Source of the DNA: Nemertoderma westbladi
Lineage: Eukaryota > Animalia > Xenacoelomorpha
Reading direction: 5' to 3'
Assembly (NCBI GenBank): GCA_032718475.1
Contig: JAUCBJ010000179.1
Coordinates: forward strand, 14,625-78,624
Length of the DNA: 64,000 nucleotides
Positions 14,510 to 40,600 of this stretch are shown here, in pieces. Below the pieces are notes generated by a model that worked only from the letters and a program-made list of their open reading frames with translations, made no database searches and was not told the DNA's origin. The stretch's first letter is position 1. Each line of letters begins with the position of its first letter. Both the position numbers and the translations under genes were made by a program.

Positions 14510-16164
14510 TATCTGAGTAGGCCTATTAGCCTAGTGCCTAGGCGCTAGGCCTACTTTACTTCGTACATTATGCTCTGCACTGCAGCGCAGCTGCCTAACT
14601 GTAGGATCAATAACTGATTAATATCCGTACTGCCGTACGAAAATGCATGGCTGTATGGATGGTGCCAACTGCAGAACTGCTAAAATGTCCTCGAACCCAG
14701 AACCTATCAAATCTGCAAATACTGTCAGACTGTAGGCCTAGGCCTACTGCAGTACTGTCTAACATTTACAACATTAATCTGTTAATTATATAGGAGGCCT
14801 AACATAATACAGTAATACTGTAGGGCCTAATGAATAGGCCTACCGGTGTTAGGGTTGGTTGACAATTTTACAGTTTTAGAGTGTTCGTTTCCCAATCAGG
14901 GTATTTTAACTCCACATAATAATTATCCGTATTGTCATGTCATCGTGTTTTTATATATTCATGAATTGGGTTACGCAGTTACTGTACATGAAATATTTAA
15001 GCTGTATGCCTACAGCTGTATAAGTAGGGTTAAGCTGTTAAGGCCTGACTAAAACTACTGAACTATAAACTAACCCTCATCAGAATAATAATACACATAT
15101 TAATGGCTGTCAAGGAATACAATCTGCAATCAGAGGTTATTCCTCGAAAGTGAAAGATAGTAAGAATTTACATAATGAGCTATGAAGTACCGGTATCAAA
15201 GTTCATATTATCCACCCTCGCCACACCATTAGGCTCCAATCTGACAACCTAACCAGACCTTGACTACTGCAGTACTGCTGTACTGAAAATAAATCTGCAG
15301 TAGTGCATAAAATATTTCAAATTTCCCACCATTTCTTGGCCTGCCAGATTTATTATTATTCTTAGTTGTTGATTGGAAGGCCATGCTGATTCTACTGATA
15401 TTGTTAGTTAGAGAGCTAACGAGATCGTACGGCATCGTTTATATTGAATGTGGACAATAATGTTTGTTTATGTGATGTGAATGTGGGTGAGCTACGAAAG
15501 TAAGCGAGCTTAGCATACATGTATCACTAACTCAATCGGTGTGTCTGTGGGACGAGCCACGAAGTAAGTGAGCCTTAGCGTAGTGGTACCATTAATTAAT
15601 CAACCTGTGGGGCGAGAAAATCCGCAATGAAATCATAAATAATAACATAATATTATTATTATTATTTATTGCCATACTTAAATACAATATTGTATATAAG
15701 GCAGTTTAGAGGCAAGCCTCTTTAACTGATAATAACTGACCTCTTAAGGAGGTCAGCTGGCACTCTATCCTAATAAGTAAGTACTAAATATAAATATAAA
15801 ATGCATGCAGTAAATAATAAACCTATGAACGAAATGGTTACACAATATTTCCATGCAGAAGAGCAATATATTTATCTAGTTAATTAATTGTACGGTACTG
15901 TACTTATATTACAGGAAACTATTACATAATACATACAAAAAAAATATACACATGATTAATAATAAATATAATTAAGTAATTAATTGCCAGACATTATTTA
16001 TTATTAAAAAATTTATTAAATTACAAAAATTCGTTTCACCGTAAATAATGTGCTCAAGCACCCAGCATTGATAGAACCCGCGTCAATTTTATTTATCCCG
16101 TTCAAATCCTGAGAGGAAATGCTTTTTTAGAGAGCCTTTAAAAGTGGAATAGTTCGTTACTAGT

Positions 16165-16270
16165 TGTGGGGCGAGCCACGAAGTTGGCGGAGCCTTAGCG
16201 AATTGACACTGTTAGGGGGTGGGTCAATTTATGCAAATAGTTGTCGTCGTCGTCGTCGTCGTCGTTGTCG

Positions 16271-16302
<32 letters not shown>

Positions 16303-17437
16303 GTCGTTACGATTTTGACATGCTAATAACTTTGTCGGATTTAAAGCTGCCAAGTTGAAAATTTGTAGGTATCAATATGAGCAAAAGGTGAGATTTTTGA
16401 GAGACTTTCAGACACCATCAGTGCAATGGTCTCCCGCTAGAGGGCCACATGTCTAAACATTAAATGGCCACCCATTTCTTTGCTTTTAATCCGTTTAAGC
16501 TGAAACTTGGGAAGTATGTACTAGACCATTAGCTGTAAATTTCAAAAGAGGCTAATCTGTCTGCAGTTCTCCAGTCTGCCGCTAGAGGGCGAAATGTCCC
16601 GAATGTGAAATTATTCTTCCATTTAGTTGTTTATGATCTGATTACGCTGAAACTTGTCATATATGTACTAGATGACATCCTGAGTCTTTGTGTGGATTGT
16701 AATCGGTCCGAAGTTTTCCAGTCTGCCGGTAGAGGGCCACATGTCTAAACATTAAATGGCCACCCATTTCTTTGCTTTTAATCCGCTTAAGCTGAAACTT
16801 GGGAAGTATGTACTAGACCATTAGCTGTAAATTTCAAAGGAGGCTAATCTGTCTGCAGTTCTCCAGTCTGCCGCTAGAGGGCGAAATGTCCCGAATGTGA
16901 AATTATTCTTCCATTTAGTTGTTTATGATCTGATTACGCTGAAACTTGTCATATATGTACTAGAAGACATCCTAAGTCTTTGTGTGGACAGTAATCGGTC
17001 CGGAGTTTTCGAGTCTGCCGCTAGAGGGCGAAATGTAGGAAAGTGATAACCTTCGCGAATTCCTTGATCTTAATCTATTTAAGCTGAATTTTGGAATATA
17101 CAGTACCGGTATGTACTAGACCACATGCCTCGTCTTTGTGAGGAAGGTGATCGATCCGCAGTTCTTTAATATGCCGCTAGAGGGCTAAATGTATGAAAGT
17201 GAAAACCTTCCAACATTTCGTTATTTATGATCCGTCAATCGGAAACTTGGTAGATATGTAATAGACCATAGGCTGTGGCTTTGTAGGGAAACTAATCCTT
17301 CCTTCTTCAGTTACCCAGTCTCCCGCTAGAGGGTTAACGTTTTCCGGGAAAATCTTCTCCTATGTTTTTATAATCCTTTCGAGTTGATACTTAGCATTAA
17401 CTCATTTCACGTGCTGCGCGAAGGCCCCACTTCGTGT
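16165..17437 (+). mobile_element. Helentron-like non-autonomous element (HINE/DINE-1-like), copy 1
   Basis: 5' TGTGGGGCGAGCCACGAAGT and 3' GCCCCACTTCGTGT subterminal inverted repeats; (GTC)n microsatellite; about 146-bp internal tandem repeats; inserted in a T run with no TSD. Confidence 0.75.
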
Positions 17438-17737
17438 TTTATTGTGTGCGGTAAGTCATTCCATAATTTTATGAGTTGGGTAGTTAAGCTGTAGTGCCCA
17501 AACCGGTTGTTAGTCCTTGGTAGTTTAATATTAAGGGTGCGTCTGTTAAGTAAGTCATCCGTGGTTGTATCTGGTAGGTAAGGAAGATTTAGATGTTGGA
17601 ATGGGATGGATATGTGGGGCGAGCCACGAAGTTGGCGGAGCCTTAGCGAATTGACACTGTTAGGGGGTGGGTCAATTTATGCAAATAGTTGTCGTCGTCG
17701 TCGCGAGCCACGAAGTTGGCGGAGCCTTAGCGAATTG

Positions 17738-19023
17738 TGTACGCGCTTTTATAGACCTTCAGCAGTTTAACCTGCCGAAATTTATATGTCTTTATTGATA
17801 AACTGCCTTTTATAAGATGACAAGATTTAATACAAAAACAAACCAAAAACATTAGCCGAAGCCAGTCCATGCGCGTCCAAATGACCCGTTTATAACACCG
17901 GGAGACTGGATTCGTGGGCTTAAATTTATTTGCGGTCAAGCCTACTGTATTATTCGATTGATTACTAATATATAATCTCTGACAAATATTATTCACTTTC
18001 GGGAAATATTAGCAGTTCCTTTTAGGACGTGGCGCTCTACCTATGTAAACAGAGTTATGACTGATACTACACACAACGATATGGCTTAAATTTCAAGCAT
18101 AGGGCGCATTCTTTAGGAATGCTTTATTATCAGATCCAATCACTTTACAATCACGCACGCTACCGGTAACGCACAACACTGCTCACTGATATGCCGACAG
18201 TTACTGACTTTGATCAGGTATAAAGAGATATGCACTGGACTCAGGTAGTGTCTGTCAAACAACATTAGATTCACTACAAACACAATAATAAAGTCGCAAT
18301 TGTTGTACATAACCTTTCTCTCTAACCTGTAGTGTATCAAAGATATTGGGAAAATGTGGGTTGATTATTGATATTCTTCAACTAATAACATCCAATTATA
18401 CTGATACAAAATTACAAACAGTAAAAGCAGTATGACGGTAGGTTAAGATACAATTAGATTGCAAGTGCAAATGAGTCGAATTGAATTGAATTGAGTCGGA
18501 TCAAATTGGATCAAATGGAATTGATAATAGCTATGCTTTCTATAATTTAGCCTACTAATGTTCTTATAAAAAGGCAGAAACATTGCGTCATTCCAGCCGA
18601 TCTTCAGGCAGTATGGAACGACATAAACACTGAGTTTGGGAGCTGCTGTAGGTATCTCTTCAAGGAAAACGCAAATCACCCTGATTGGTTGTTAGACCAA
18701 AAACAAAGGAACCAGGAGTCCAATGAGAGCTCCCTCCACGTCATCATCCAGCTGGGAGATGTCGTAATCAGAATCCTTCCCTTGACATAGTGACAATGAA
18801 ATGCCGCATTGCGGGTTGTGTACCCTGCTACGTCCGCATAAAGCACACATTCAGAAGAATCTATTTTATGTCCGTTAAAAACACTTATACAGCACCCCGA
18901 GGGCTAGGGGATCCAATTATATCTGTAAACGCTTTTACAGCAGGTTTCAGAGTATTTCAGCGTATGGGGGAAAAACTGGATCGCGGGGCGAAGGACCAGT
19001 TGCATCCCACAGAAGCTTTTACA
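17738..19023 (-). repeat. 3' LTR
   Basis: Direct repeat of 27538-28823 (offset 9800); identical by eye and by shared small ORFs. Confidence 0.95.
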
Positions 19024-19977
19024 CCGCTCCCAGAAAATGGGATTGAAGTCTATAAAATATACGAGATCACAGTTTCTAATATACATAAATACTCTAAACC
19101 GTTAGTCTTTCTTGCGCGGACGGCGTTTACGCAGTTTTTTAAAGCTGGCCAGAGTCCTTTTCTCTTTGGGGCGAACCACTTTACAAGGAGGGCTATAACT
19201 CCTGGGTGAAAGGTGCAATATAATTGCATCAGAGGGTGCAGGCTTATAGTCGGGGTATCCGCCGTTTCGATATGCTTCTCCTCGAGCTGATTTTCCTCTG
19301 CTCGTCGGTGGATACATTCGTCCAAAAAATCTCGCGGAGAATAGAGTCGTCCAAGTTCGATATCTTCTTAGAGATTAGTTTAAGTTATCTGAACAAACGC
19401 AGGTTTCTTTCCTGATCTTTGTGGAATAGCGTCTAACTCGTTTCGGACAACGCTCTCCTCTACCTTGATGACGGGTGGTAGCGGGTTAAACGGGAACGAT
19501 CCCGATTACACGGTTGAATGGCAACAACGGGTGTCCGTGCCTCAATCCGGCCAGGTAAGATAGGCGGATATTTAGGGAGCCATTAACCTGAGTGCCACCA
19601 ACCAACGGCTCGGGCAACACTGGATCTCGGAACGGTAAGCACAGTTCATGAGGATCCGCGATACTATTAGGATCAAGAGTCCGAGGTCTAACTAAGGAAG
19701 GAGGAGGTCTGACCGAGCATTCAGGAACTCAGATCATAGGTCTACTCAAGGATCGCCCGAGCCGAGAAAGCGTGGGTGACACATCGAACAAGTTTCTCTC
19801 GAAACTCCCGCAAACACAGCGAGCAAACCGTGTTTAAAGCTTCGTCTCCGTTGACGTTTATGTCTTTCCGTTTGTTGGTTGGTCTTAGGCATTCATCGTA
19901 ATAATACCAAGACACACGTCTTGTAGGGGAAACGCGAGTGATATTTATTTGGTGTTACAATGCTTCTCTCAAGAATT

Positions 19978-20400
19978 CTAAATATACGTTGGAGTTACCG
20001 CGTTTATCCGCTTCTTGAACGTCTTTTCTTTCGCGTAGACTTCGCATAGAATTTTCGCATTCGAATTTAAGTTCATTGTTACGACTCCGCTGGGTAGGAT
20101 ATTTAAATAATACCATTTCCCTTTTGTGTTGACATAGTCCGTATCGTGTAAGTCGATATAATAGCAGGTAGTTAAGAAGTCCATATATATACCATTAATA
20201 TGCGTATAGCGAGCGGTGAACTTGCTACAGTCCAACCCACGCGCAAGTTGCTCCTGGGACATAGGTGGTTCGATATAACTACCATCGTCCTCGGTAGTAG
20301 TTGGATCAGCTTCACCGCGTATCAAGCTATCCACAAACGCTTGTAAAGGTAGAGTATATCCCTCTCTAATACCAAGATCATCTTCTATCAACTCCGTCAT
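19978..20400 (-). CDS. Hypothetical 140-aa accessory ORF inside the LTR element
   Basis: ATG-initiated, same strand as gag, non-repetitive globular-like composition; no family recognised. Confidence 0.4.
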   Translation of the reverse strand: MTELIEDDLGIREGYTLPLQAFVDSLIRGEADPTTTEDDGSYIEPPMSQEQLARGLDCSKFTARYTHINGIYMDFLTTCYYIDLHDTDYVNTKGKWYYLNILPSGVVTMNLNSNAKILCEVYAKEKTFKKRINAVTPTYI

Positions 20401-22034
20401 ATCTGTTATATGAGTTTACCAATATTAGAAGGAGTTTGGCTTTAGGCGAGCAGGCGTCGCTGCCTACCCCTCTCTGCCCCCGGACAGTGGGATCCTCAGC
20501 GCCGATGCACCGTTGTCGCGTGTTTACGCCAACGTTGTGGCAACAGCACGACAACGATAACCGGCACAAGTCACTCCACTGTCCGTCCCAAAGTCTTGAA
20601 ATCACTTGAGGTTCTTGCTATGGGAGAGTTGGGCTACTTTACAATTGCGACTAGCTACGGTAAACACACTTTAGCAGTAACATTCACCTACAAACGCACA
20701 AATTCCACACAACAGCTACCAACTACAATCATACCGGCCACTTGTCCGTTAGTCAGTGCTTTCCAAAATGTCACGTTATTATTGTGTATCCTTGGATACC
20801 AACAGTGTGCTATGTAATCACTATGCTAGGCAATGGGCAAGCTTTCTATTGTTCTGTTAACTCGTTTCTAATTCTGTTAACTCGTTTCTAATTCTAGCGT
20901 GGGTGTTGCTATGGTGACATTATGTAAAGCTAGCGGTAGAATTAGGGTAATTCTCATGCATACAGATCTGGGATGCTGTTTGATAGTAAGTCTTTAATTG
21001 TCAAGATCCTCTTTATACATGATTTTATGAATTTTGTCGGCCATTGACTATATGTTGGAGATTCTTGCACTCTAATACACTCAATAGGATTAATCTCCGC
21101 TCCCGTGATCTATTAATTAGTGGAATTTTGGGAATATTAGAAATTGTGCAAAATGACAATTTATTAAATTCATAAAATATGAATTTTAAATTTATTCCCG
21201 TGAATTTTATTATTTGATGGTAAGATTGACATAATTTTGATTCCAGAACATATCTGGGGACATAAGATCCTTAATTCTATAAAATGGTCTTTTAAGAATA
21301 CCGGTAAGTGCTACGATATCTTAATTAACTAGAAATTTTAAAGGATCTGAATTTGACAGATTTTAATAAATATTAAATTAATATTTAAGATGGGCACCGA
21401 TTTATTCCAGAACTTGTCTGGGGACGTTAACCACTGATTCTAGAATTTGTCTTTCAAGTATATCGGTGGGTGCCACGATATCTTAATCGACTAGAATTAC
21501 AGATGGTCAAAAGTTTAACAGATTTATTTGCGTTTTACGCTACTGTTAAAGGGACATCACGCTACTATATGTATTATTTAATATAGGTAGAAGAGCAATA
21601 TCGCACAAGGCAATGTCAGTGTGAAGAGGCAAGTCGTTTCCAAGGTCTACCCAGAGCTTGGTTTAGCCGAGACACGAGGATCTGAACTTTGCATTCCTAA
21701 TACTCTGCCTACCAATAATACTGAAAATATAGTAGTGGCTTTATTGTACTTTAATAAGTACGGACATTTCATCTTACTGTAGTCTCGCATTTATAATATA
21801 ATACGGACAGTAAGGAAAGAGAAAATAATTATTTCTCGCCGTCGCACTAAGTATATTATGTAATTACGTAATAAACACTAATATATTGCACTAATCTACT
21901 AAATAATCTAAAATAACACTCTACTAAATAAAATTAAATAAAACGATTATAATAAAATACATAGTAATACATACATAAATATAAAATAAAAACAAATATA
22001 AAATAATATAGTCACACACCCACTCCATATATTA

Positions 22035-25000
22035 TTACGTGATGGAGTCCCTAGATATTTGTCGAATTAGGGAAGTGGTCGTAGGAAGAGTATCTTGCCT
22101 TCCATGGTTTCCGGACAGTTTTCGGTCTCTTCCCGGTAAACCTAAACGACCAGCTGGGCGATTAGGCCGTCGTGATATTTCCTCCGCTCCCTTGGCCTGT
22201 CTAATCTCCGCCGCGGCAAGACGAGGAGGCCATTCTTCTTCTTCTTTACTTAGGGAGTCGGGTCCACCCAACCAGCCGGGAGTATCTATCCGTTCTTGAG
22301 GAGTTACTCCTCTGGAAGCGATGTCGGCTAGATTAATCGTCTCGGGTCGATGTCTCCATTGATCTACATTGGAGTTGATATCGTCGCTATCTGAGGAGTA
22401 TGTTGTTCCCTCAGTGGCTTCGTCCACCTCACTGCTCTCCTCTTCCCAAGCTTTTACTTGAAGTATCCGGTCTTGTGGCAGTCTTTCTTCAAGGGTTCTG
22501 CGGGAAGGGCCAGTGAAGTACCAACCTACTCGAGTTCTTACCGCATAAGGTTGTAATGGCTGCGGTTGAGCAGGCCGTTTCTCTAACGTCTCGAGCGCCT
22601 CATGCGCGTTTTGGCCGATAAGGATTTGTACTCCAGGATAATCAGTTTGGAATCGAGGTATTCCCAAATGTTGGATGTTCTCGTCCTCGTCCCAGTCATA
22701 AGGTTCTACTTGAGTAGTAGCGAAGTTCTTTATTGCCACCATTTTTACTGACTCTATACTTTGTTCCCCTAATTTATCCTGTGGAGTGGACAATGCGCCG
22801 ATATAATAATCTGCCATTAAGGTAGATTTCCAAACCTGCATAATTCCGGACATATTTAACTTAGTTCGGAATTTGGGTTGTCCAGCAAAAATATCCTCGG
22901 CTAACTCCTTGTCGATGAATGTTCCGGTGCTACCTGAGTCAAGGAGGGCGTTCACTATGTAACTTTTGTTGGGACCGTGAACTCTTACCTGGACTACCGG
23001 AAATTCTCGTATTCCTATGTTGGATGTTGGAGTTTTCCGAGATGGTTGCTTGTCCAAGGAGGTTGATGGAAACTCCGTGTCGTTATCCTTTTCGTACGTA
23101 AGTGCTCGATACACTGCGGTGTTTATTAGATAACAGGATTCGTTGGCATCAGAGAATTCGTCAGTATAGAATCCTTCCCACTCAGAACTTTGGTCAGTGT
23201 CGTTCACATCACTGAATTGGACATGTGATTTGGGCTCACTTACCTGACTCGGGTGGTTTCGTTCGAATTCTGTGTGCAATAAGCTATGATGTTTCGCGCC
23301 GCACTTAGCACACCTTGCGTTATAGTAACAGGTTCGCTGCTGGTGTCCGCGTCTGAGACAGTTAGAACACAACCGCTTATCCCACAGGACTCCACGTCTA
23401 CCTGCCAGGGATTTCTTTAGGAATTCTGCACACACCCTCAAACGGTGGGGCCCGTCGCACAGCGCACATTTTGGTTTGATGTTACTCACTTTAACTTGGG
23501 CAATGTTATGCACTTTGGTTCTTTCTTCGGGCTTTCTTACCTGAATTCTTTTGGGAGACTGAGGAGGGGTCTTAGTGAGCTTGTCTCTCCTATCATTGGT
23601 TCGAGGCCGGTATTTACTTACGTCTCTCAGGGTTTTGTGGTCATCGTAAGATCTTGCTGTGTCTTTCCCGCTGTCCTCTTCATGGGAGGTCTGGCTTTCG
23701 CCGTCGTCAGTATAACATACGGGTATTATTCTTTTCCTAGAAACGGGTTTTTCACTTACCTGATTTTCCGATGTTTTTTCCCTGGATTGCTTTATTAGTT
23801 GTAGTTTGACCTCACGGTCTAGGAATGACATGAGATCCGCCATGGTGGGGCTCCGTCGTTGTTGCTCCATCATATACAACACTTTCTTGTCCCAACGTGT
23901 ACATACTCCCCCCTTTGGCAAAGTAGAGACAATGGCTCCGATAACCATGGAACTCTGATATTCATGGGACTTACCTAACCAATCCAATTGCCTACAGATT
24001 TCTTGAATCTCATCGGAAAACTCTATAATCTCGTTACTAAAGAACTTTCGGGGAGCTACCAGTTTTGCATACAAATACTTAGCGATGTTATCCTTATTAC
24101 CATACCTGATGTTTAGGGTATCCCAAACTTGTCTTAATCCATCTGGATGTCCAATAAACTTTAACGCCATTAACTTGGGAGATCCTTCCAAACACTCGAT
24201 GAGGTATCTAAGTTTCTCTCCGTTAGATAGCACAGAGTTCTGTATGTTATCTTTGTAATATTCATTAAAAGGTAACCATTTCATCTCATCTCCATTGAAT
24301 TTGACGATTTCTCCCTCTTTGACCGCTTGGCGGGCTTCTGTTCTAGCCATTTGACGCGTAAAGCTTTCTTGGGCCATCGTGTTATTAAATATCGAATTAT
24401 CGGTATATAAATTTCTCGAATTATTATCAGGTCTATAGGGAATATCATTACCAACAGGTTTATAATCTCCCTTAATAGGGTTTACTATAGGAGTTTCTAC
24501 TTCGCTAGCAGTATATACGCGTGTAGGCGACACACCTTGCGCATGATATACTTCAGACCTAACAGGTTGACACATGGTTACAGGGGGTGTTTCTACTTCG
24601 CTAGCAGTATATATGCGTGTAGGCGACACACCTTGCGCATGATATACTTCAGACCTAACAGGTTGACGCATGGTTACAGGGGGTGTTGGTATACCCCTTT
24701 GTAAATTTACTAACTTATCGCATTCTGACGCGATACTCTGTTGCACCTCTTGCAATGCTAACCTACTTTCCCTTACTGTGCCCTTGAACTGCTTAACAGT
24801 CTCTTCCAACTCCCGGACCTGCTGGGAGGAGCACAAACAGTGTTCCCTCAGCTGCTCGAGCAGGAGACCCATCTCCCGTCGCCCCTCAGCTACCCACTCG
24901 ACCGCCGAAGCGGGAGTCGCCAACGTAGTGGCGGGCGAGCGAGAGACGACGGGCGATAAATTCTTGATATCATCTCGCTCGGCGTCCAGGATGGGTTCAG

Positions 25001-25433
25001 ACTCGGGAACAGTCCTACTGGGCACAGGTATTTTAGTACTGTGCAAAGGGAATTTGGTAGTAGGTTTGGGAAGTACAGGTGTCTCTATCACCGAAGGGGT
25101 GTTTTCGAGAACAGGCCTAATTATTTCCGGTTCATCTACCATAGTAGGGAGTCTGCTTACGGTAACATTTCGGTCTGTGGGTTCTGTACTACCTACGGCT
25201 GTGCTAGCTAGTTGTCTTCCAACAGCTGGAGGCAAATCAGGCAACTTCCGACGGGGAGACGTTCTGTTACGCCTACTGAGACGAGATCTATTTCCTCCAC
25301 CTTCGGGATCTTTTATATCACCTTCATCGGAGGAGGCAAATCCCTGTCTTCTGATTTGTCTCCTCAAGTCTGCTTCTGCCACTGCCTCTGCCGCTTTTCT
25401 TTCCGCTTCTGCTGTTGCCATTGCCTCTGCCAC
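22035..25433 (-). CDS. BEL/Pao Gag-protease polyprotein (DUF1759-like capsid, Zn knuckles, aspartic protease, RNase H tail remnant), 1132 aa
   Basis: KFNGDEMKWLPF...EKLRYLIECLEG, CALCDGPH..C, CSNCLRRGH..C, CAKCGAKHHSLLH, ALLDSGS, AVRTRVGWYFTGP, QWRH...NLADIASRG...WLGGP...EEEWP. Confidence 0.9.
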   Translation of the reverse strand: MAEAMATAEAERKAAEAVAEADLRRQIRRQGFASSDEGDIKDPEGGGNRSRLSRRNRTSPRRKLPDLPPAVGRQLASTAVGSTEPTDRNVTVSRLPTMVDEPEIIRPVLENTPSVIETPVLPKPTTKFPLHSTKIPVPSRTVPESEPILDAERDDIKNLSPVVSRSPATTLATPASAVEWVAEGRREMGLLLEQLREHCLCSSQQVRELEETVKQFKGTVRESRLALQEVQQSIASECDKLVNLQRGIPTPPVTMRQPVRSEVYHAQGVSPTRIYTASEVETPPVTMCQPVRSEVYHAQGVSPTRVYTASEVETPIVNPIKGDYKPVGNDIPYRPDNNSRNLYTDNSIFNNTMAQESFTRQMARTEARQAVKEGEIVKFNGDEMKWLPFNEYYKDNIQNSVLSNGEKLRYLIECLEGSPKLMALKFIGHPDGLRQVWDTLNIRYGNKDNIAKYLYAKLVAPRKFFSNEIIEFSDEIQEICRQLDWLGKSHEYQSSMVIGAIVSTLPKGGVCTRWDKKVLYMMEQQRRSPTMADLMSFLDREVKLQLIKQSREKTSENQVSEKPVSRKRIIPVCYTDDGESQTSHEEDSGKDTARSYDDHKTLRDVSKYRPRTNDRRDKLTKTPPQSPKRIQVRKPEERTKVHNIAQVKVSNIKPKCALCDGPHRLRVCAEFLKKSLAGRRGVLWDKRLCSNCLRRGHQQRTCYYNARCAKCGAKHHSLLHTEFERNHPSQVSEPKSHVQFSDVNDTDQSSEWEGFYTDEFSDANESCYLINTAVYRALTYEKDNDTEFPSTSLDKQPSRKTPTSNIGIREFPVVQVRVHGPNKSYIVNALLDSGSTGTFIDKELAEDIFAGQPKFRTKLNMSGIMQVWKSTLMADYYIGALSTPQDKLGEQSIESVKMVAIKNFATTQVEPYDWDEDENIQHLGIPRFQTDYPGVQILIGQNAHEALETLEKRPAQPQPLQPYAVRTRVGWYFTGPSRRTLEERLPQDRILQVKAWEEESSEVDEATEGTTYSSDSDDINSNVDQWRHRPETINLADIASRGVTPQERIDTPGWLGGPDSLSKEEEEWPPRLAAAEIRQAKGAEEISRRPNRPAGRLGLPGRDRKLSGNHGRQDTLPTTTSLIRQISRDSIT

Positions 25434-26693
25434 CTTCCTTTCAAGACACTGTCCAAGTCTAATTTTGTTTGTACAGTTGAATGCCTACTGCTATATTACA
25501 GCTAAAGCAAGTCTAGTAATTCAGTAAGACTGTTGGCCTAGTACCGGCAATTAACTACAATATATTAGGATACCGGTATACACTTATAGTATATATAAGT
25601 ATTGCGGGCTAGGTTTGTTACAGAGTACCGGTATATAATTTCAGTACAAATATATACAAATATATATTAAGCCTATTATAGATACCGGTATATCAATTAT
25701 TTAGGATAGTTGAATTTCTGAAATTATAAGGTTACTTAGTTACTTGAGTTTACTCTATTACCGTTATTCAAGCAGTAGTCCAACTGATATTGAGACCTAA
25801 TTGTTGTATGATAGGCCTACTGGTTTATAAATCTTTTGAGTTGATTTATAATATATATATACCCTGATAAGGGGTTTGTTACAAGATTGAAATAGGTGTT
25901 ACTATTTCTGGGAAATATCACTACACAGAAGCTGTGCGCTTTCAGTGAAGTGCTACTTAGTGGACACTAAAACGAATAATTCTACTGGCCTAAGTTACTT
26001 ATCTACTAATTACGTAATATATGGTTGAGATTACAATCTCTAATAAACACACAAAACGGTACGTACAGATTTTTAGGGCAATTTTACAGGGAAACTACTA
26101 ACCAGTCTAACAAAGGGTTAGAACTTCTGGCTATTACAACGAACAGGATACTACGGTATTTGAAAATAATAAGTAGAAGTAAATACTGCGTTGTCTAGAT
26201 AGGAAAGTACCACCGCCTGACGACCTACAGCCGTATCGCTATAGGTACAACGTTATGTATCTACGGAGTGTTCCTACCTAGAAGTTAATTACCGCCGTCT
26301 ACCAGAACGAGCGTGCCTATTAACCACTTTACAACACAATAATGCCTACACTAATTACTTTCGGAAAGCACTGTACACTAAACCCTAAATTAGGTACAGG
26401 TACTTGTAAAAACAGATAACCAGTAGTTAAATATACTTGAACAGTTAAAAGAACCACAGCATCTGCTGGAGTGACCGGGGCACTGAGTCACCAGTCTTTA
26501 CCTACGCCAAGCAGCCCGTGTAGTACTGGGGTTAATTTAACTATAACGGTATGTATAACAAACACAATTACTGTAGGAATAAACTTGGGGACATGAATGT
26601 TGCGAGTAATCGCATAAACTCTGAATAATAAATATTACGCTACCCGTACAGAATACTCAAATAAAATACAAACCGGATGCTGACCAACTACCA

Positions 26694-27180: not shown

Positions 27181-27363
27181 ATGACCTGAACAGTCTGAGC
27201 AGACTTACACGTCTTCAGCTCAATATTAACTTACTAGGAAATAAAACTGACAGAAATAAACCTAAGTAAAATCCCAATAAAAACCAGGCGTCCCCGATTT
27301 AGTATCAAGACCTACCGGTATACAATAATCAAAATCGAATAATACTAATGTACTTGCACAGCA

Positions 27364-27485
27364 GTACCGGTTATGACAGTTGGGCCTACGGACCTACGGT
27401 AGTAGTACCGGTTATGACAGTTGGGCCTACTGACCTACGGTAGTAGTACCGGTTATGACAGTTGGGCCTACTGACCTACTGGAGT
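27364..27485. repeat. 41-bp tandem repeat x3 in the element's 5' leader
   Basis: Unit GTACCGGTTATGACAGTTGGGCCTAC.GACCTACGGTAGTA. Confidence 0.9.
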
Positions 27486-27537
27486 GCCGGTATTTTCAAT
27501 CTTATTGCTTACCGCAAATAAGATCGATAGCTATTAT

Positions 27538-28823
27538 TGTACGCGCTTTTATAGACCTTCAGCAGTTTAACCTGCCGAAATTTATATGTCTTTATTGATA
27601 AACTGCCTTTTATAAGATGACAAGATTTAATACAAAAACAAACCAAAAACATTAGCCGAAGCCAGTCCATGCGCGTCCAAATGACCCGTTTATAACACCG
27701 GGAGACTGGATTCGTGGGCTTAAATTTATTTGCGGTCAAGCCTACTGTATTATTCGATTGATTACTAATATATAATCTCTGACAAATATTATTCACTTTC
27801 GGGAAATATTAGCAGTTCCTTTTAGGACGTGGCGCTCTACCTATGTAAACAGAGTTATGACTGATACTACACACAACGATATGGCTTAAATTTCAAGCAT
27901 AGGGCGCATTCTTTAGGAATGCTTTATTATCAGATCCAATCACTTTACAATCACGCACGCTACCGGTAACGCACAACACTGCTCACTGATATGCCGACAG
28001 TTACTGACTTTGATCAGGTATAAAGAGATATGCACTGGACTCAGGTAGTGTCTGTCAAACAACATTAGATTCACTACAAACACAATAATAAAGTCGCAAT
28101 TGTTGTACATAACCTTTCTCTCTAACCTGTAGTGTATCAAAGATATTGGGAAAATGTGGGTTGATTATTGATATTCTTCAACTAATAACATCCAATTATA
28201 CTGATACAAAATTACAAACAGTAAAAGCAGTATGACGGTAGGTTAAGATACAATTAGATTGCAAGTGCAAATGAGTCGAATTGAATTGAATTGAGTCGGA
28301 TCAAATTGGATCAAATGGAATTGATAATAGCTATGCTTTCTATAATTTAGCCTACTAATGTTCTTATAAAAAGGCAGAAACATTGCGTCATTCCAGCCGA
28401 TCTTCAGGCAGTATGGAACGACATAAACACTGAGTTTGGGAGCTGCTGTAGGTATCTCTTCAAGGAAAACGCAAATCACCCTGATTGGTTGTTAGACCAA
28501 AAACAAAGGAACCAGGAGTCCAATGAGAGCTCCCTCCACGTCATCATCCAGCTGGGAGATGTCGTAATCAGAATCCTTCCCTTGACATAGTGACAATGAA
28601 ATGCCGCATTGCGGGTTGTGTACCCTGCTACGTCCGCATAAAGCACACATTCAGAAGAATCTATTTTATGTCCGTTAAAAACACTTATACAGCACCCCGA
28701 GGGCTAGGGGATCCAATTATATCTGTAAACGCTTTTACAGCAGGTTTCAGAGTATTTCAGCGTATGGGGGAAAAACTGGATCGCGGGGCGAAGGACCAGT
28801 TGCATCCCACAGAAGCTTTTACA
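27538..28823 (-). repeat. 5' LTR
   Basis: Upstream of gag on the minus strand; TATA-like TATAAGAA at 28368-28361. Confidence 0.95.
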
Positions 28824-30849
28824 AATTGACACTGTTAGGGGGTGGGTCAATTTATGCAAATAGTTGTCGTCGTCGTCGTCGTCGTCGTTGTCGTCGTCGT
28901 CGTTGTCGTCGTTACGATTTTGACATGCTAATAACTTTGTCGGATTTAAAGCTGCCAAGTTGAAAATTTGTAGGTATCAATATGAGCAAAAGTTGAGATT
29001 TTTGAGAGACTTTCAGACACCATCAGTGCAATGGTCTCCCGCTAGAGGGCCACATGTCTAAACATTAAATGGCCACCCATTTCTTTGCTTTTAATCCGTT
29101 TAAGCTGAAACTTGGGAAGTATGTACTAGACCATTAGCTGTAAATTTCAAAGGAGGCTAATCTGTCTGCAGTTCTCCAGTCTGCCGCTAGAGGGCGAAAT
29201 GTCCCGAATGTGAAATTATTCTTCCATTTAGTTGTTTATGATCTGATTACGCTGAAACTTGTCATATATGTACTAGATGACATCCTGAGTCTTTGTGTGG
29301 ATTGTAATCGGTCCGAAGTTTTCCAGTCTCCCGCTAGAGGGCCACATGTCTAAACATTAAATGGCCACCCATTTCTTTGCTTTTAATCCGTTTAAGCTGA
29401 AACTTGGGAAGTATGTACTAGACCATTAGCTGTAAATTTCAAAGGAGGCTAATCTGTCTGCAGTTCTCCAGTCTGCCGCTAGAGGGCGAAATGTCCCGAA
29501 TGTGAAATTATTCTTCCATTTAGTTGTTTATGATCTGATTACGCTGAAACTTGTCATATATGTACTAGAAGACATCCTAAGTCTTTGTGTGGACAGTAAT
29601 CGGTCCGGAGTTTTCGAGTCTGCCGCTAGAGGGCGAAATGTAGGAAAGTGATAACCTTTGCGAATTCCTTGATCTTAATCTATTTAAGCTGAATTTTGGA
29701 ATATACAGTACCGGTATGTACTAGACCACATGCCTCGTCTTTGTGAGGAAGGTGATCGATCCGTAGTTCTTTAATATGCCGCTAGAGGGCTAAATGTATG
29801 AAAGTGAAAACCTTCCAACATTTCGTTATTTATGATCCGTCAATCGGAAACTTGGTAGATATGTAATAGACCATAGGATGTGGCTTTGTAGGGAAACTAA
29901 TCCTTCCTTCTTCAGTTACCCAGTCTCCCGCTAGAGGGTTAACGTTTTCCGGGAAAATCTTCTCCTATGTTTTTATAATCCTTTCGAGTTGATACTTAGC
30001 ATTAACTCATTTCACGTGCTGCGCGAAGGCCCCACTTCGTGTTTGTTATGTACTTGGCAAAGAATAGTAACCCGAAATACTCCCGGTATGCAGAGAGTAT
30101 TGGTATTCTTGCTCTTGTTCGTAATTCAGTTCCAGTGTAGTCCTTGATTCTTGCATTGTACACGGATCGTAAGCCGTAATTTTGTATTTTTTCGAGTTTG
30201 TATAACATTTCTTTGTGGCCGTGGACGTTATGTAAGGATAGCATAAGATAGCAACAATACTGATGATACGGCAGTACAAGTGATTTATAGAGATTTTGTT
30301 TCGTTTTTAGAGGTAGTTGACCCTTAATTTTCCTAAGGCATGATATTCCGAGAGACATTTTTTGGATGATGCGATTAATATGAGGTTTCCATTCGAGCTT
30401 GTTATCGAATTAATAGCAGTTAATTAGTTAAATTAAAATGAATTAAGTTGGTTAGGGTAAAAACAGCATTTTCAACATGGCTTAATGGAAATTAATTATT
30501 TGATAGTAGGATATAAATAATTATACTTAAAAATTATACAGCTGTAATCCCCATACTCCATTCCATTATAGTATTAATTAGTTCAAGTGATTTGCTTTAA
30601 GAAATGTGTATTTAATGGATCTAAACGTAAGTTATCAAAATGCATCTCGTCACTCTATACATCCAAGCATACTTGCTATTGCCTATTACTGTAGTTGGAA
30701 ACCAGTCCAATCATCTCGCCACTACTTGGCAACGGGTAATTACATCTATAGGGCCGAGGCAGGCGCTACAAGTGTACTTTCATTAATCCTCTGTGGTCCT
30801 TTGGGTTGGGGTGGTGTAGATTGAGAGGGCGGTTGAAGCAAGGGGGGAA

Positions 30850-31633: not shown

Positions 31634-34600
31634 TTCGACTGGTGTTGACCTTTCGTTAAACTACAGTAAAAAAGGTTTATCCGCCATATTTTTACGGACG
31701 TTTATTTCCATTTACGTGGGTCAGTCAAGCTCGATAAAATTAAATGGCGCTTCTTCTTGAGTATTTTAGAATTACTAACGGAGTCAAGGATCGGTGGCTT
31801 TACCTTCGCTGTCCTGTGTTATTTTTAACAAATTTAACGAAATTGATAATTTAGTTGCATCAATCTGGTATTGGCTGTCACATTGGTTCAAGTAACTTTG
31901 GGATTGTTATCTACGCAGGCAACATTGTCCTTCTTTGTCCCTCCATCTCGGGTCTTCATTATGGTTAATATGTTTTGATTTTGCCAGAAATAACAGAATA
32001 TAATTCAGCACCAACGTTGATCTTACAATGAGCAAAACAACTTGAGTTCCATTTGGTGCTAGATGGTTCCTTCCGAATTACCAGATCGTGCTCAATAATT
32101 GTGACAAACTTGCACGGGTAAAGGAAATGAAACAACTTGAGTTCCAATTGCTGCTAAATGGTTCCCTCCGAGTTACCAGATCGTGCTAAATAATGGTGAC
32201 AAACTTACACGGGTAAAGGAAATGAAACAACTTGAGTTCCAATTGCTGCTAAATGGTCACCTCCGAGTTACCAGAACGTGCTCAATAATGGTGACTAACT
32301 TACACGGGTAAAGGAAATGAAACAACTTGAATTCCAATTGCTGCTAAATGGTCACCTCCGAGTTACCAGAACATGCTCAAAAATAGAGACAAACTTACAC
32401 GGGTAAAGGAAATGAAACAACTTGAGTTCCAATTGCTGCTAAATGGTCACCTCCGAGTTACCAGATCGTGCTCAATAATGGAGACAAAATTACACGGGTA
32501 AAGGAAATGAAACAACTTGATTTCCAATTGCTACTAAATGGTCACCTCCGAGTTACCAGATCGTGCTCAATAATGGTGACAAACTTACACGGGTAAAGGA
32601 AATGAAACAACTTGAGTTCCAATTGCTGCTAAATGGTCACCTCCGAGATACCAGATCGTGCTCAATAATGGTGATAAACTTACACGGGTAAATGAAATGA
32701 AACAACTTGAGTTCCAATTGCTGCTAAATGGTCACCTCCGAGTTACCAGAACGTGCTCAAAAATAGAGACAAACTTACACGGGTAAAGGAAATGAAACAA
32801 CTTGAGTTCCAATTGCTGCTAAATGCTTCCCTCCGTGTTACCAGATCGTGCTCAATAATGGTGACAAACTTACACGGGTAAAGGAAATGAAACAACTTGT
32901 GTTCCAATTACTGCTAAATGGTCCCCTTCGAGTTACCAGATCGTATAATGGTGACAAACTTACACGGGTGAAGGAAATGAAACAACTTGTGTTCCAATTA
33001 CTGCTAAATGGTTCCCTCCGAGTTACCAGATCGTGCTCAATAATGATGACAAACTTACACGGGTAAAGGAAATGAAACAACTTGAGTTCCAATTGCTGCT
33101 AAATGGTCACCTCCGAGTTACCAGATCGTGCTCAATAATGGTGACAAACTTACACGGGTAAAGGAAATGAAACAACTTGAGTTCCAATTGCTGCTAAATG
33201 GTTCCCTCCGAGTTACCAGATCCTGCTCAATAATGGTAACAAACTTACACGGGTAAAGGAAATGAAACAACTTGAGTTACAATTGCTGCTAAATGGACAC
33301 CTCCGAGTTACCAGAACGTGCTCAATAATGGTTACAAACTTACACGGGTAAAGGAAATGAAACAACTTGAGTTACAATTGCTGCTAAATGGTCACCTCCG
33401 AGTTACCAGAACGTGCTCAATAATGGTGACAAAATTACACGGGTAAAGGAAATGAAACAACTTGAGTTCCAATTGCTGCTAAATGGTCACCTCCGAGTTA
33501 ACAGATCGTGCTCAATAATGGTGACAAACTTACACGGGTAAAGGAAATGAAACAACTTGAGTTCCAATTGCTGCTAAATGGTCACCTCCGAGTTACCAGA
33601 TCGTGCTCAATAATGGTGACAAACGTACACGGGTAAAGGAAATGAAACAACTTGAGTTCCAATTGCTGCTAAATGGTTCCCTCCGAGTTACCAGATCGTG
33701 CTCAATAATGGTGACAAACTTACACGGGTAAAGGAAATTAAACAACTTGAGTTCCAATTGCTGCTAAATTGTCACCTCCGAGTTACCAGATCGTGCTCAA
33801 CAATGGTGACAAACTTACACGGGTAAAGGAAATGAAACAACTTGAGTTCCAATTGCTGCTAAATGGTCACCTCCGAGTTACCAGATCGTGCTCAATAATG
33901 GTGACAAACTTACACGGGTAAAGGAAATGAAACAACTTGAGTTCCAATTGCTGATAAATGGTTCCCTCCGAGTTACCAGATCGTGCTCAATAATGGTGAC
34001 AAACTTACACGGGTAAAGGAAATGAAACAACTTGAGTTCCAATTGCTGCTAAATGGTTCCCTCCGAGTTACCAGATCGTGCTCAATAATGGTGATAAACT
34101 TACACGGGTAAAGGAAATGAAACAACTTGAGTTCCAATTGCTGCTAAATGGTCACCTCCGAGTTACCAGATCGTGCTCAATAATGATGACAAACGTACAC
34201 GGGTAAAGGAAATGAAACAACTTGAGTTCCAATGGCTGCTAAATGGTTCCCTCCGAGTTGCCAGATCGTGCTAAATAATGGTGACAAACTTACACGGGAA
34301 AAGGAAATTAAACAACTTGAGTTCCAATTGCTGCTAAATTGTCACCTCCGAGTTACCAGATCGTGCTCAATAATGGTGACAAATTTACACGGGTAAAGGA
34401 AATGAAACAACTTGATTTCCAATTGCTGCTAAATGGTTCGTTCCGAGTTACCAGAACGTGCCCAAAAATAGAGACAAACTTACACGGGTAAAGGAAATGA
34501 AACAACTTGAGTTCCAGTTGCTGCTAAATGGTTCCCTCCAAGTTACCAGATCGTGCTCAATAATGGTGACAAACTTACACGGGTAAAGGAAATGAAACAA

Positions 34601-37600
34601 GTTGAGTTCCAATTGCTGCTAAATGGTTCCCTCCGAGTTACCAGATCGTGCTCAATAATGGTGACAAACTTACACGGGTAAAGGAAATGAAACAACTTAA
34701 GTTACAATTGCTGCTAAATGGTCACCTCCGAGTTACCAGAACGTGCTCAATAATGGTGACTAACTTACACGGGTAAAGGAAATGAAACAACTTGAATTCC
34801 AATTGCTGCTAAATGGTCACCTCCGAGTTACCAGAACATGCTCAAAAATAGAGACAAACTTACACGGGTAAAGGAAATGAAACAACTTGAGTTCCAATTG
34901 CTGCTAAATGGTCACCTCCGAGTTACCAGATCGTGCTCAATAATGGAGACAAAATTACACGGGTAAAGGAAATGAAACAACTTGATTTCCAATTGCTGCT
35001 AAATGGTCACCTCCGAGTTACCAGATCCTGCTCAATAATGGTAACAAACTTACACGGGTAAAGGAAATGAAACAACTTGAGTTCCAATTGCTGCTAAATG
35101 GTCACCTCCGAGTTACCAGATCGTGCTCAATAATGGTGACAAACGTACACGGGTAAAGGAAATGAAACAACTTGAGTTCCAATGGCTGCTAAATGGTTCC
35201 CTCCGAGTTGCCAGATCGTGCTCAATAATGGTGACAAACTTACACGGGAAAAGGAAATAAACAACTTGAGTTCCAATTGCTGCTAAATTGTCACCTCCGA
35301 GTTACCAGATCGTGCTCAATAATGGTGACAAATTTACACGGGTAAAGGAAATGAAACAACTTGATTTCCAATTGCTGCTAAATGGTTCGTTCCGAGTTAC
35401 CAGAACGTGCCCAAAAATAGAGACAAACTTACACGGGTAAAGGAAATGAAACAACTTGAGTTCCAGTTGCTGCTAAATGGTTCCCTACAAGTTACCAGAT
35501 CGTGCTCAATAATGGTGACAAACTTACACGGGTAAAGGAAATGAAACAAGTTGAGTTCCAATTGCTGCTAAATGGTTCCCTCCGAGTTACCAGATCGTGC
35601 TCAATAATGGTGACAAACTTACACGGGTAAATGAAATGAAACAACTTGAGTTACAATTGCTGCTAAATGGTCACCTCCGAGTTACCAGAACGTGCTCAAT
35701 AATGGTGACTAACTTACACGGGTAAAGGAAATGAAACAACTTGAATTCCAATTGCTGCTAAATGGTCACCTCCGAGTTACCAGAACATGCTCAAAAATAG
35801 AGACAAACTTACACGGGTAAAGGAAATGAAACAACTTGAGTTCCAATTGCTGCTAAATGGTCACCTCCGAGTTACCAGATCGTGCTCAATAATGGAGACA
35901 AAATTACACGGGTAAAGGAAATGAAACAACTTGATTTCCAATTGCTGCTAAATGGTCACCTCCGAGTTACCAGATCGTGCTCAATAATGGTGACAAACTT
36001 ACACGGGTAAAGGAAATGAAACAACTTGAGTTCCAATTGCTGCTAAATGGTCACCTCCGAGATACCAGATCGTGCTCAATAATGGTGATAAACTTACACG
36101 GGTAAATGAAATGAAACAACTTGAGTTCCAATTGCTGCTAAATGGTCACCTCCGAGTTACCAGAACGTGCTCAAAAATAGAGACAAACTTACACGGGTAA
36201 AGGAAATGAAACAACTTGAGTTCCAATTGCTGCTAAATGCTTCCCTCCGAGTTACCAGATCGTGCTCAATAATGGTGACAAACTTACACGGGTAAAGGAA
36301 ATGAAACAACTTGTGTTCCAATTACTGCTAAATGGTCCCCTTCGAGTTACCAGATCGTATAATGGTGACAAACTTACACGGGTGAAGGAAATGAAACAAC
36401 TTGTGTTCCAATTACTGCTAAATGGTTCCCTCCGAGTTACCAGATCGTGCTCAATAATGATGACAAACTTACACGGGTAAAGGAAATGAAACAACTTGTG
36501 TTCCAATTACTGCTAAATGGTCCCCTTCGAGTTACCAGATCGTATAATGGTGACAAACTTACACGGGTGAAGGAAATGAATCAACTTGTGTTCCAATTAC
36601 TGCTAAATGGTTCCCTCCGAGTTACCAGATCGTGCTCAATAATGATGACAAACTTACACGGGTAAAGGAAATGAAACAACTTGAGTTCCAATTGCTGCTA
36701 AATGGTCACCTCCGAGTTACCAGATCGTGCTCAATAATGGTGACAAACTTACACGGGTAAAGGAAATGAAACAACTTGAGTTCCAATTGCTGCTAAATGG
36801 TTCCCTCCGAGTTACCAGATCCTGCTCAATAATGGTAACAAACTTACACGGGTAAAGGAAATGAAACAACTTGAGTTACAATTGCTGCTAAATGGACACC
36901 TCCGAGTTACCAGAACGTGCTCAATAATGGTTACAAACTTACACGGGTAAAGGAAATGAAACAACTTGAGTTACAATTGCTGCTAAATGGTCACCTCCGA
37001 GTTACCAGAACGTGCTCAATAATGGTGACAAAATTACACGGGTAAAGGAAATGAAACAACTTGAGTTCCAATTGCTGCTAAATGGTCACCTCCGAGTTAC
37101 CAGATCGTGCTCAATAATGGTGACAAACTTACACGGGTAAAGGAAATGAAACAACTTGAGTTCCAATTGCTGCTAAATGGTCACCTCCGAGTTACCAGAT
37201 CGTGCTCAATAATGGTGACAAACGTACACGGGTAAAGGAAATGAAACAACTTGAGTTCCAATTGCTGCTAAATGGTTCCCTCCGAGTTACCAGATCGTGC
37301 TCAATAATGGTGACAAACTTACACGGGTAAAGGAAATTAAACAACTTGAGTTCCAATTGCTGCTAAATTGTCACCTCCGAGTTACCAGATCGTGCTCAAC
37401 AATGGTGACAAACTTACACGGGTAAAGGAAATGAAACAACTTGAGTTCCAATTGCTGCTAAATGGTCACCTCCGAGTTACCAGATCGTGCTCAATAATGG
37501 TGACAAACTTACACGGGTAAAGGAAATGAAACAACTTGAGTTCCAATTGCTGATAAATGGTTCCCTCCGAGTTACCAGATCGTGCTCAATAATGGTGACA

Positions 37601-40600
37601 AACTTACACGGGTAAAGGAAATGAAACAACTTGAGTTCCAATTGCTGCTAAATGGTTCCCTCCGAGTTACCAGATCGTGCTCAATAATGGTGATAAACTT
37701 ACACGGGTAAAGGAAATGAAACAACTTGAGTTCCAATTGCTGCTAAATGGTCACCTCCGAGTTACCAGATCGTGCTCAATAATGGTGACAAACGTACACG
37801 GGTAAAGGAAATGAAACAACTTGAGTTCCAATGGCTGCTAAATGGTTCCCTCCGAGTTGCCAGATCGTGCTCAATAATGGTGACAAACTTACACGGGAAA
37901 AGGAAATTAAACAACTTGAGTTCCAATTACTGCTAAATTGTCACCTCCGAGTTACCAGATCGTGCTCAATAATGGTGACAAATTTACACGGGTAAAGGAA
38001 ATGAAACAACTTGATTTCCAATTGCTGCTAAATGGTTCGTTCCGAGTTACCAGAACGTGCCCAAAAATAGAGACAAACTTACACGGGTAAAGGAAATGAA
38101 ACAACTTGAGTTCCAGTTGCTGCTAAATGGTTCCCTCCAAGTTACCAGATCGTGCTCAATAATGGTGACAAACTTACACGGGTAAAGGAAATGAAACAAG
38201 TTGAGTTCCAATTGCTGCTAAATGGTTCCCTCCGAGTTACCAGATCGTGCTCAATAATGGTGACAAACTTACACGGGTAAAGGAAATGAAACAACTTGAG
38301 TTACAATTGCTGCTAAATGGTCACCTCCGAGTTACCAGAACGTGCTCAATAATGGTGACTAACTTACACGGGTAAAGGAAATGAAACAACTTGAATTCCA
38401 ATTGCTGCTAAATGGTCACCTCCGAGTTACCAGAACATGCTCAAAAATAGAGACAAACTTACACGGGTAAAGGAAATGAAACAACTTGTGTTCCAATTAC
38501 TGCTAAATGGTCCCCTTCGAGTTACCAGATCGTATAATGGTGACAAACTTACACGGGTGAAGGAAATGAAACAACTTGTGTTCCAATTACTGCTAAATGG
38601 TTCCCTCCGAGTTACCAGATCGTGCTCAATAATGATGACAAACTTACACGGGTAAAGGAAATGAAACAACTTGAGTTCCAATTGCTGCTAAATGGTCACC
38701 TCCGAGTTACCAGATCGTGCTCAATAATGGTGACAAACTTACACGGGTAAAGGAAATGAAACAACTTGAGTTCCAATTGCTGCTAAATGGTTCCCTCCGA
38801 GTTGCCAGATCCTGCTCAATAATGGTAACAAACTTACACGGGTAAAGGAAATGAAACAACTTGAGTTCCAATTGCTGCTAAATGGTCACCTCCGAGTTAC
38901 CAGATCGTGCTCAATAATGGTGACAAACGTACACGGGTAAAGGAAATGAAACAACTTGAGTTCCAATGGCTGCTAAATGGTTCCCTCCGAGTTGCCAGAT
39001 CGTGCTCAATAATGGTGACAAACTTACACGGGAAAAGGAAATTAAACAACTTGAGTTCCAATTGCTGCTAAATTGTCACCTCCGAGTTACCAGATCGTGC
39101 TCAATAATGGTGACAAATTTACACGGGTAAAGGAAATGAAACAACTTGATTTCCAATTGCTGCTAAATGGTTCGTTCCGAGTTACCAGAACGTGCCCAAA
39201 AATAGAGACAAACTTACACGGGTAAAGGAAATGAAACAACTTGAGTTCCAGTTGCTGCTAAATGGTTCCCTCCAAGTTACCAGATCGTGCTCAATAATGG
39301 TGACAAACTTACACGGGTAAAGGAAATGAAACAAGTTGAGTTCCAATTGCTGCTAAATGGTTCCCTCCGAGTTACCAGATCGTGCTCAATAATGGTGACA
39401 AACTTACACGGGTAAAGGAAATGAAACAACTTGAGTTACAATTGCTGCTAAATGGTCACCTCCGAGTTACCAGAACGTGCTCAATAATGGTGACTAACTT
39501 ACACGGGTAAAGGAAATGAAACAACTTGAATTCCAATTGCTGCTAAATGGTCACCTCCGAGTTACCAGAACATGCTCAAAAATAGAGACAAACTTACACG
39601 GGTAAAGGAAATGAAACAACTTGAGTTCCAATTGCTGCTAAATGGTCACCTCCGAGTTACCAGATCGTGCTCAATAATGGAGACAAAATTACACGGGTAA
39701 AGGAAATGAAACAACTTGATTTCCAATTGCTGCTAAATGGTCACCTCCGAGTTACCAGATCGTGCTCAATAATGGTGACAAACTTACACGGGTAAAGGAA
39801 ATGAAACAACTTGAGTTCCAATTGCTGCTAAATGGTCACCTCCGAGATACCAGATCGTGCTCAATAATGGTGATAAACTTACACGGGTAAATGAAATGAA
39901 ACAACTTGAGTTCCAATTGCTGCTAAATGGTCACCTCCGAGTTACCAGAACGTGCTCAAAAATAGAGACAAACTTACACGGGTAAAGGAAATGAAACAAC
40001 TTGAGTTCCAATTGCTGCTAAATGCTTCCCTCCGAGTTACCAGATCGTGCTCAATAATGGTGACAAACTTACACGGGTAAAGGAAATGAAACAACTTGTG
40101 TTCCAATTACTGCTAAATGGTCCCCTTCGAGTTACCAGATCGTATAATGGTGACAAACTTACACGGGTGAAGGAAATGAAACAACTTGTGTTCCAATTAC
40201 TGCTAAATGGTTCCCTCCGAGTTACCAGATCGTGCTCAATAATGATGACAAACTTACACGGGTAAAGGAAATGAAACAACTTGAGTTCCAATTGCTGCTA
40301 AATGGTCACCTCCGAGTTACCAGATCGTGCTCAATAATGGTGACAAACTTACACGGGTAAAGGAAATGAAACAACTTGAGTTCCAATTGCTGCTAAATGG
40401 TTCCCTCCGAGTTACCAGATCCTGCTCAATAATGGTAACAAACTTACACGGGTAAAGGAAGTGAAACAACTTGAGTTACAATTGCTGCTAAATGGACACC
40501 TCCGAGTTACCAGAACGTGCTCAATAATGGTTACAAACTTACACGGGTAAAGGAAATGAAACAACTTGAGTTACAATTGCTGCTAAATGGTCACCTCCGA

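Follow-up and report, generated by a model that had tools for sequence, protein, structure and literature searches.

A BEL/Pao retrotransposon in Nemertoderma westbladi carries no tRNA-type sequence at the position of its primer-binding site (PBS), and this raises the question of what primes its reverse transcription. The element occupies 11,086 nt of the minus strand (28823 to 17738) of the 64,000-nt stretch of DNA that we analysed, here called the window. Its long terminal repeats (LTRs) are bounded by TG..CA and accompanied by a target-site duplication (TSD) and a purine-rich tract (PPT) (Table 1). Because the two LTRs are identical, the insertion is probably recent, and the empty-site junction is present in some contigs as loose ends at 28824.

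Table 1. Features of the element, in window coordinates
Feature	Position	Strand	Remarks
5' LTR	27538..28823	-	1,286 nt, TG..CA, 100% identical to 3' LTR
3' LTR	17738..19023	-	1,286 nt, TG..CA
Target-site duplication AATTG	28824..28828	+	5 nt; other copy 17733-17737
Candidate PPT, purine-rich tract adjoining 3' LTR	19024..19031	-
1,149-codon frame	22035..25484	-	Gag, zinc knuckles, protease-like motif, post-RNase H remnant
11-nt ATAATAGCTAT at PBS position	27527..27537	-	offset 0 from LTR; directly after ACA, no TGG
Candidate self-primer, exact complement of PBS-position 11-mer	28324..28334	-	3' LTR copy 18524-18534
TATA-like TATAAGAA	28361..28368	-	after pyrimidine run; not kept in the most diverged subfamily contigs
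Block common to diverged subfamily contigs	28321..28363	-	stops 1-3 nt past primer 3' end, just short of TATA
Hairpin just 3' of PBS position	27499..27524	-	predicted, p 0.86
25-bp R/U5-leader helix enclosing PBS, LTR strand	27747..27772	-	predicted, p 0.90, -22.9 kcal/mol
25-bp R/U5-leader helix, leader strand	27319..27345	-	predicted
LTR segment over AATAAA (27730)	27726..27741	-	able to pair with leader 27521-27507; alternative to hairpin
AATAAA, candidate polyadenylation signal	27591..27596	-	59 nt from LTR end
41-nt tandem repeat in leader	27363..27479		2.9 copies

The long frame encodes a DUF1759 Gag (aa 396-524; PF03564, E 7.9e-13), zinc knuckles starting at aa 673 and a weakly matching protease-like motif (E 0.006), and it ends in a remnant of about 50 aa that resembles relatives just after RNase H. 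The closest proteins, the best of 9,638 library matches, are about 30% identical. The initial annotation had named a BEL/Pao element; this assignment is borne out by the DUF1759 Gag and by BEL/Pao Pfam domains (PF05380/PF03564/PF18701) in 16 of the 17 protein matches. Proteins of Ty3/gypsy chromoviruses are absent, Gag and protease being of BEL/Pao type. Neither a reverse transcriptase (RT), an RNase H core nor an integrase was found in the 1,149-codon frame, which departs in this from the PR-RT-RH-IN pol of BEL/Pao; in the light of the missing RT and integrase we regard the element as non-autonomous, and its sequence marks it as a deletion derivative of BEL/Pao. Frames in the 3' UTR gave no useful Pfam or Atlas match. 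Short sense frames do occur in the 3-kb 3' region (19981-20415, 19745-19954 and 19105-19374, minus strand), one of them ending in a very basic tail.

Several other features share the window. The element is flanked by repeat copies that are 98% identical to one another (16201-17439 and 28824-30044), built of 146/292-nt tandem units with a GTC microsatellite; we take this repeat to resemble Helitron-derived non-autonomous elements. At 17620-17737 lies a duplicate of a short segment surrounding the target site. Two long satellite arrays are present (95 nt x 119 at 32035-43323; 88 nt x 103 at 45673-54734), as are a single-frame mL44-like gene on the minus strand at 13571-14530 (PF22935, E 3e-27; no match at E 1e-20 in a word-based search) and, on the minus strand at 60000-64000, a second element whose Gag, zinc-knuckle and protease-like frames look BEL/Pao-like by eye, have no Pfam match and belong to an element with its 5' end beyond the window. 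At 2360-2800, a diverged LTR remnant of this element's family (75% over 134 nt) abuts an RT-bearing frame at 2790-3701; the remnant, near 2440, stops short of the 11-mer region.

According to the initial annotation, the 5' LTR is followed immediately by ATAATAGCTAT (27537-27527) with no TGG, and the exact complement of this 11-mer lies within the LTR (28334-28324). Both observations and their coordinates were confirmed. Watson-Crick pairing extends on neither side of the 11 nt. An 18-nt PBS complementary to the 3' end of tRNA-Arg or tRNA-Gly is absent after the 5' LTR, the 64-kb window contains no tRNA genes, and Rfam gave no match anywhere over the element. The arrangement is that of Tf1-type elements, in which the PBS is complementary to the element's own LTR over about 11 nt. 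A primer created by splicing was rejected for this element: 0 GT/GC-AG junctions in the LTR give a complement of at least 10 nt, and a 7-nt match at 28404 would require a non-canonical intron.

We compared this match with the level expected by chance. Dinucleotide shuffles of the LTR produced a complement of at least 11 nt in 18 of 20,000 cases at offset 0 and in 38 of 20,000 at offsets 0-4. Among real 11-mers, 12 of 8,504 internal ones had an LTR complement, as did 56 of 59,540 outside (tandem arrays excluded) and 18 of 7,231 that were GC-matched, giving an empirical background of 0.1-0.25%. Five of the 12 internal matches fall within 200 nt of the leader's start, where the local rate is nearer 2%. 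Because the leader holds other LTR complements, chance is likelier than the shuffles suggest. Further exact complements number two in the leader, a count reached in 38 of 5,000 shuffles, and two in the 3' UTR. The caveats attached to the original proposal, an AT-rich 11-mer and a long R-U5, also hold: the 11-mer has an 8-nt palindromic core and a duplex energy of -10.6 kcal/mol, and its complement lies 786 nt from the LTR end, compared with 44-216 nt in BEL/Pao relatives.

Tf1-type self-priming involves flanking RNA structure that resembles retroviral U5 stems. Folding predictions for the window element include a U5 hairpin and a 25-bp helix between R/U5 and the leader, whose LTR strand keeps its core in the 75%-identical remnant near 2440; the stem-loop that the initial annotation had drawn just after the PBS is also predicted (p 0.86). 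In RNA running from 28334 to 27350 or shorter, the 11-mer is predicted to pair with the PBS at a mean p of 0.89; extending the RNA through the leader to 27300 brings in the crossing 25-bp helix, which lowers the primer helix to p 0.00 under nested folding. In folds with the 25-bp helix, the PBS is surpassed in openness by only 40 of 1,025 RNA windows and the 11-mer by 15. Opening both would cost 2.4 kcal/mol, leaving a net of about -8 kcal/mol after duplex formation and before loop cost. As a general feature of relatives such a helix was ruled out, a comparable R/U5-leader complement being significant in just 2 of 14 elements, this one included.

Two other pairings emerged from the folding work. 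Leader 27521-27507 could pair with LTR 27741-27726 at -20 kcal/mol, an arrangement not populated in the folds, and the choice between it and the hairpin is a possible switch guarding against premature polyadenylation. Separately, the 12-nt 3' UTR segments 20787-20776 and 20652-20641 complement the adjacent LTR segments 28091-28080 and 28103-28092 in nested order, which suggests a long-range helix.

The initial annotation read TATAAGAA, which begins at 28368 and 34 nt upstream of 28334, as the mark of a transcription start at 28334. Its position stands, but the proposed role is not supported: diverged contigs replace the TATA-like word, and of 19 relatives a single one has such a word 26-36 nt before its complement. 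For self-priming, transcription need only begin no further downstream than 28334; the 5' end may be longer, with the primer lying inside it.

Variation within the family was followed in assembled contigs. Six sequencing runs, none recorded as RNA, share about half or more of the window's words, and four of them were aligned in this form. One X4 contig spans 27444-27564 without differences, and no variant in the PBS or the 11-mer appears among the 40 of 111 difference rows listed. Between 28296 and 28410 no substitutions are listed, though the aligned contigs carry up to 6 differences at unlisted places. In three diverged X4 contigs the alignment is confined to the part between 28321-28323 and 28362-28363, with 3-6 differences at unlisted places; five loose-end rows in X1, X3 and X4 start at 28321-28323. 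Behind 28362, the TATA-like word is substituted in rows of X1, X4 and X5. A conserved block that ends just past the 11-mer and leaves the TATA-like word outside would agree with a primer role. This evidence is suggestive only, because a variable pentamer-repeat tract begins at the same edge as the block and the places of the contig differences are unlisted. A family-specific 30-nt pattern had 0 matches in metagenome_contigs.

To place the signature in a wider context, we fetched relatives with an alignment of 20 full-length matches, obtaining 80 loci from animal-associated metagenomes, the top-ranking of 586 confirmed, and 16 genome-collection loci; viral_contigs searches gave 0, 1 and 0 loci. 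Most of the relative loci are probably animal host DNA inside microbial assemblies. Full BEL/Pao elements with LTRs also occur in bacterial genome records, namely MAGs and a Wolbachia chromosome (L082, L084, L086, L094, L097, L092), and these are probably host DNA contamination.

At 17 loci the repeat ended inside the contig. Ten of these were tested together with L079; L041, which has a TGG site, and L006, L050, L060, L062, L078 and L093, where the repeat end is unlike an LTR, were left out, and the LTR ends of L094 and L097 were placed manually, a few bases beyond where the alignment stops. A self-complementary PBS was present at 10 of the 11 loci, across a splice junction at nine and contiguous at one (L007), and the remaining locus has a tRNA-type site. 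The spliced loci combine a complement of 10-13 nt with a GT(A/G)AG donor and a pyrimidine-AG acceptor. Shuffles matched at rates of 0-1/200 for spliced loci other than L084, 10/200 for L084 and 9/1,000 for L007.

A blind scan over every ACA covered the 28 of 97 loci that were testable, 67 others having no Gag start, PPT or full LTR and L001 and L049 being excluded. It recovered a self-complementary PBS at 20 of the 28, of which 16 run across a splice junction and four are contiguous at LTR-like positions. The remainder comprises two contiguous matches far into the leader, which were not counted, and six loci with none, including L097, whose end is not ACA. With 40 shuffles per locus, spliced matches arose at 0-1/40. 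The loci include the near-duplicates L076/L077, L078/L079, L039/L042 and L023/L028. Throughout, relatives with the signature lack TGG, and their self-complement measures 10-13 nt and starts 0-4 nt after the LTR.

PBS sequences differ widely, yet a PBS rarely matches the LTR of another element. In a comparison of 15 elements, four of them picked as positives, the PBS matched its own LTR in 14 of 15 cases, against 7 matches in 210 cross pairs, six of these seven within the related trio L023/L034/L042; the window PBS itself also matched one unrelated LTR over 10 nt. Between the sister pair L082 and L084 three primer bases differ, and the PBS changes match them. Covariation between PBS and LTR, which the initial annotation had named as a check, is thus seen as a compensatory change in these relatives, and none was seen within the window element's own family. 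In L082:1001-1770 and L084:1001-1862 the spliced complement stops right before AATAAA, 44-48 nt from the LTR end. Since most testable relatives are self-complementary, a compensatory pair exists and PBSs rarely match the LTRs of other families, self-priming likely occurs in BEL/Pao.

In an RT-RNase H tree of 36 rows, the signature-bearing loci form one clade (98/96) that leaves out both TGG elements and six insect-labelled rows (four by source name, two by likeness), and contiguous forms appear in three places among spliced ones. Our guess is that this clade corresponds to Sinbad/Sparrow/Surcouf. A Gag-protease tree (33 rows, four omitted) places the window element outside the signature clade on a long branch, as does a FastTree of 143 rows. 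Topology tests rejected nesting it with its best matches (p-AU 0.0001) but did not reject a sister position (p-AU 0.26). Because the window element falls outside this clade, the evidence from relatives applies to it by analogy.

Taken together, these results favour, with a probability of about 0.63, a non-autonomous BEL/Pao element that has no tRNA-type primer site and uses a fragment of its own RNA as primer for reverse transcription. Transcription would start at or upstream of 28334, and the 11-mer would anneal to the PBS across the 25-bp R/U5-leader helix. RT/RNase H supplied by an autonomous partner would then cut 3' of 28324 and free a 3'-OH, the corresponding cut in Tf1 lying between bases 11 and 12. 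Minus-strand DNA would copy U5 and part of a long R; with polyadenylation governed by the AATAAA that lies 59 nt from the LTR end, R would measure about 750 nt. Further AATAAA motifs begin at 27928 and 27730. An early strand transfer is possible, which would spare the RT a continuous copy of all 786 nt to the LTR end, and plus-strand synthesis would be primed by the purine tract. In the spliced relatives cleavage would take place within exon 2, and the intron would thus have to be recopied from the unspliced 3' LTR. Of the original proposal, the missing tRNA-type PBS and probable self-priming stand, the signature recurring in relatives with a compensatory change, and the start marked by TATAAGAA is not supported.

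An unlikely alternative is that the 11-nt match reflects chance or a structural pairing, for packaging or polyadenylation control, and that priming occurs by other means. The five exact 11-13-nt LTR complements in or near the UTRs, three of them within 200 nt of the LTR, fit such an account, as do the low GC and palindromic core of the 11-mer, the position of the element outside the signature clade and the many LTR elements that a genome scan meets. Against it, the match starts with the very first base after the LTR and is as long as those of Tf1 and the relatives (10-13 nt), there is no TGG site to prime instead, and conservation in diverged contigs stops at the 11-mer.

We consider it quite improbable that a host RNA, either a tRNA half or a 5' fragment, is the primer and the LTR match incidental. 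The middle of the 11-mer resembles what we take to be conserved tRNA positions 8-12, which speaks for a host RNA, and the base that would occupy tRNA position 14 is presumably unlike the usual one, which speaks against it. The PBSs of relatives are moreover too variable to fit a conserved tRNA, and they follow the sequence of their own LTRs. Half-tRNA priming, as in copia, does exist in Ty1/copia lineages, but among plant elements the available parts of the source describe it in copia lineages only (PMC6317226). Least of all do we expect a primer of element RNA acting in trans, supplied by a second, co-packaged genome, by the 3' LTR copy or by a short transcript of the LTR, with no fold-back. 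Two observations would suit a trans primer, namely the stronger helix that the primer helix has to cross in cis and the second copy of the 11-mer in the 3' LTR; yet loops of several hundred nt leave space for crossing, the unspliced 3' LTR copy of spliced relatives lacks the junction, and the Tf1 precedent is described as intramolecular in the accessible text of PMC7175516.

Beyond this locus, and at somewhat less than even odds, tRNA-independent priming may be widespread in BEL/Pao and span at least two deep lineages: a spliced-primer clade with an LTR intron and at least three apparent intron losses, and the distant lineage of the window element, in which an R of about 750 nt would accompany an unspliced primer docked over a 25-bp LTR-leader helix. 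Self-priming would then be old or have arisen twice. Self-priming of the window element would in itself place the Tf1 mechanism in all three LTR retrotransposon superfamilies, imply that a BEL/Pao RNase H is capable of cleavage at an RNA-RNA duplex and, for the spliced relatives, link the onset of reverse transcription to host splicing. It would also account for BEL/Pao elements without a PBS in annotation pipelines and bear on the proposal, taken from the available text of PMC3601003, that tRNA priming was a late acquisition.

We found no report of BEL/Pao self-priming in the open literature, as distinct from subscription journals, Repbase, GyDB and supplements, including the accessible text of PMC6934838, PMC8220671, PMC5443660 and PMC6238403; a term look-up located no PBS discussion in the searchable parts of PMC3118150, PMC8556966, PMC554778 and PMC6238403. 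Published accounts of BEL/Pao replication call it poorly understood and name a tRNA as the primer, and the ICTV profile of Belpaoviridae lists an 18-nt tRNA-Arg/tRNA-Gly PBS as the sole priming and an LTR of 0.2-1.2 kb (PMC8742986). The window element shares with that family the DUF1759 Gag, zinc knuckles, protease, post-RNase H motif and LTR structure, and differs in having no tRNA PBS, an LTR slightly above 1.2 kb and no RT or integrase. Most self-complementary BEL/Pao relatives (loci L007-L097) need an LTR intron removed, whereas the window element is contiguous and not nested among them.

The closest functional parallels lie in other superfamilies. Tf1/Tf2 of Schizosaccharomyces pombe, Tj1 and the Tf1/sushi and Tcn1 groups of Ty3/gypsy are self-primed according to the accessible parts of PMC7175516, PMC4600332 and PMC5341516, and the Tf1 primer is released by RNase H within the same molecule (PMC7175516, accessible text). 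Like Tf1/Tf2 and Tj1 as described there, the window element has an 11-nt PBS that complements its own LTR RNA and no tRNA site; unlike those Ty3/gypsy systems, it is BEL/Pao by its proteins, lacks RT, has a predicted primer that is possibly internal and leaves 786 nt to the LTR end. In the TAR lineage of plant Ty1/copia (Houba, Osr-1), the available text of PMC6317226 predicts self-priming where a complement of 10 nt or more begins 0-5 nt beyond the LTR, a pattern that the window element also displays. TAR elements belong to copia and to plants, and self-priming there is, as here, a prediction.
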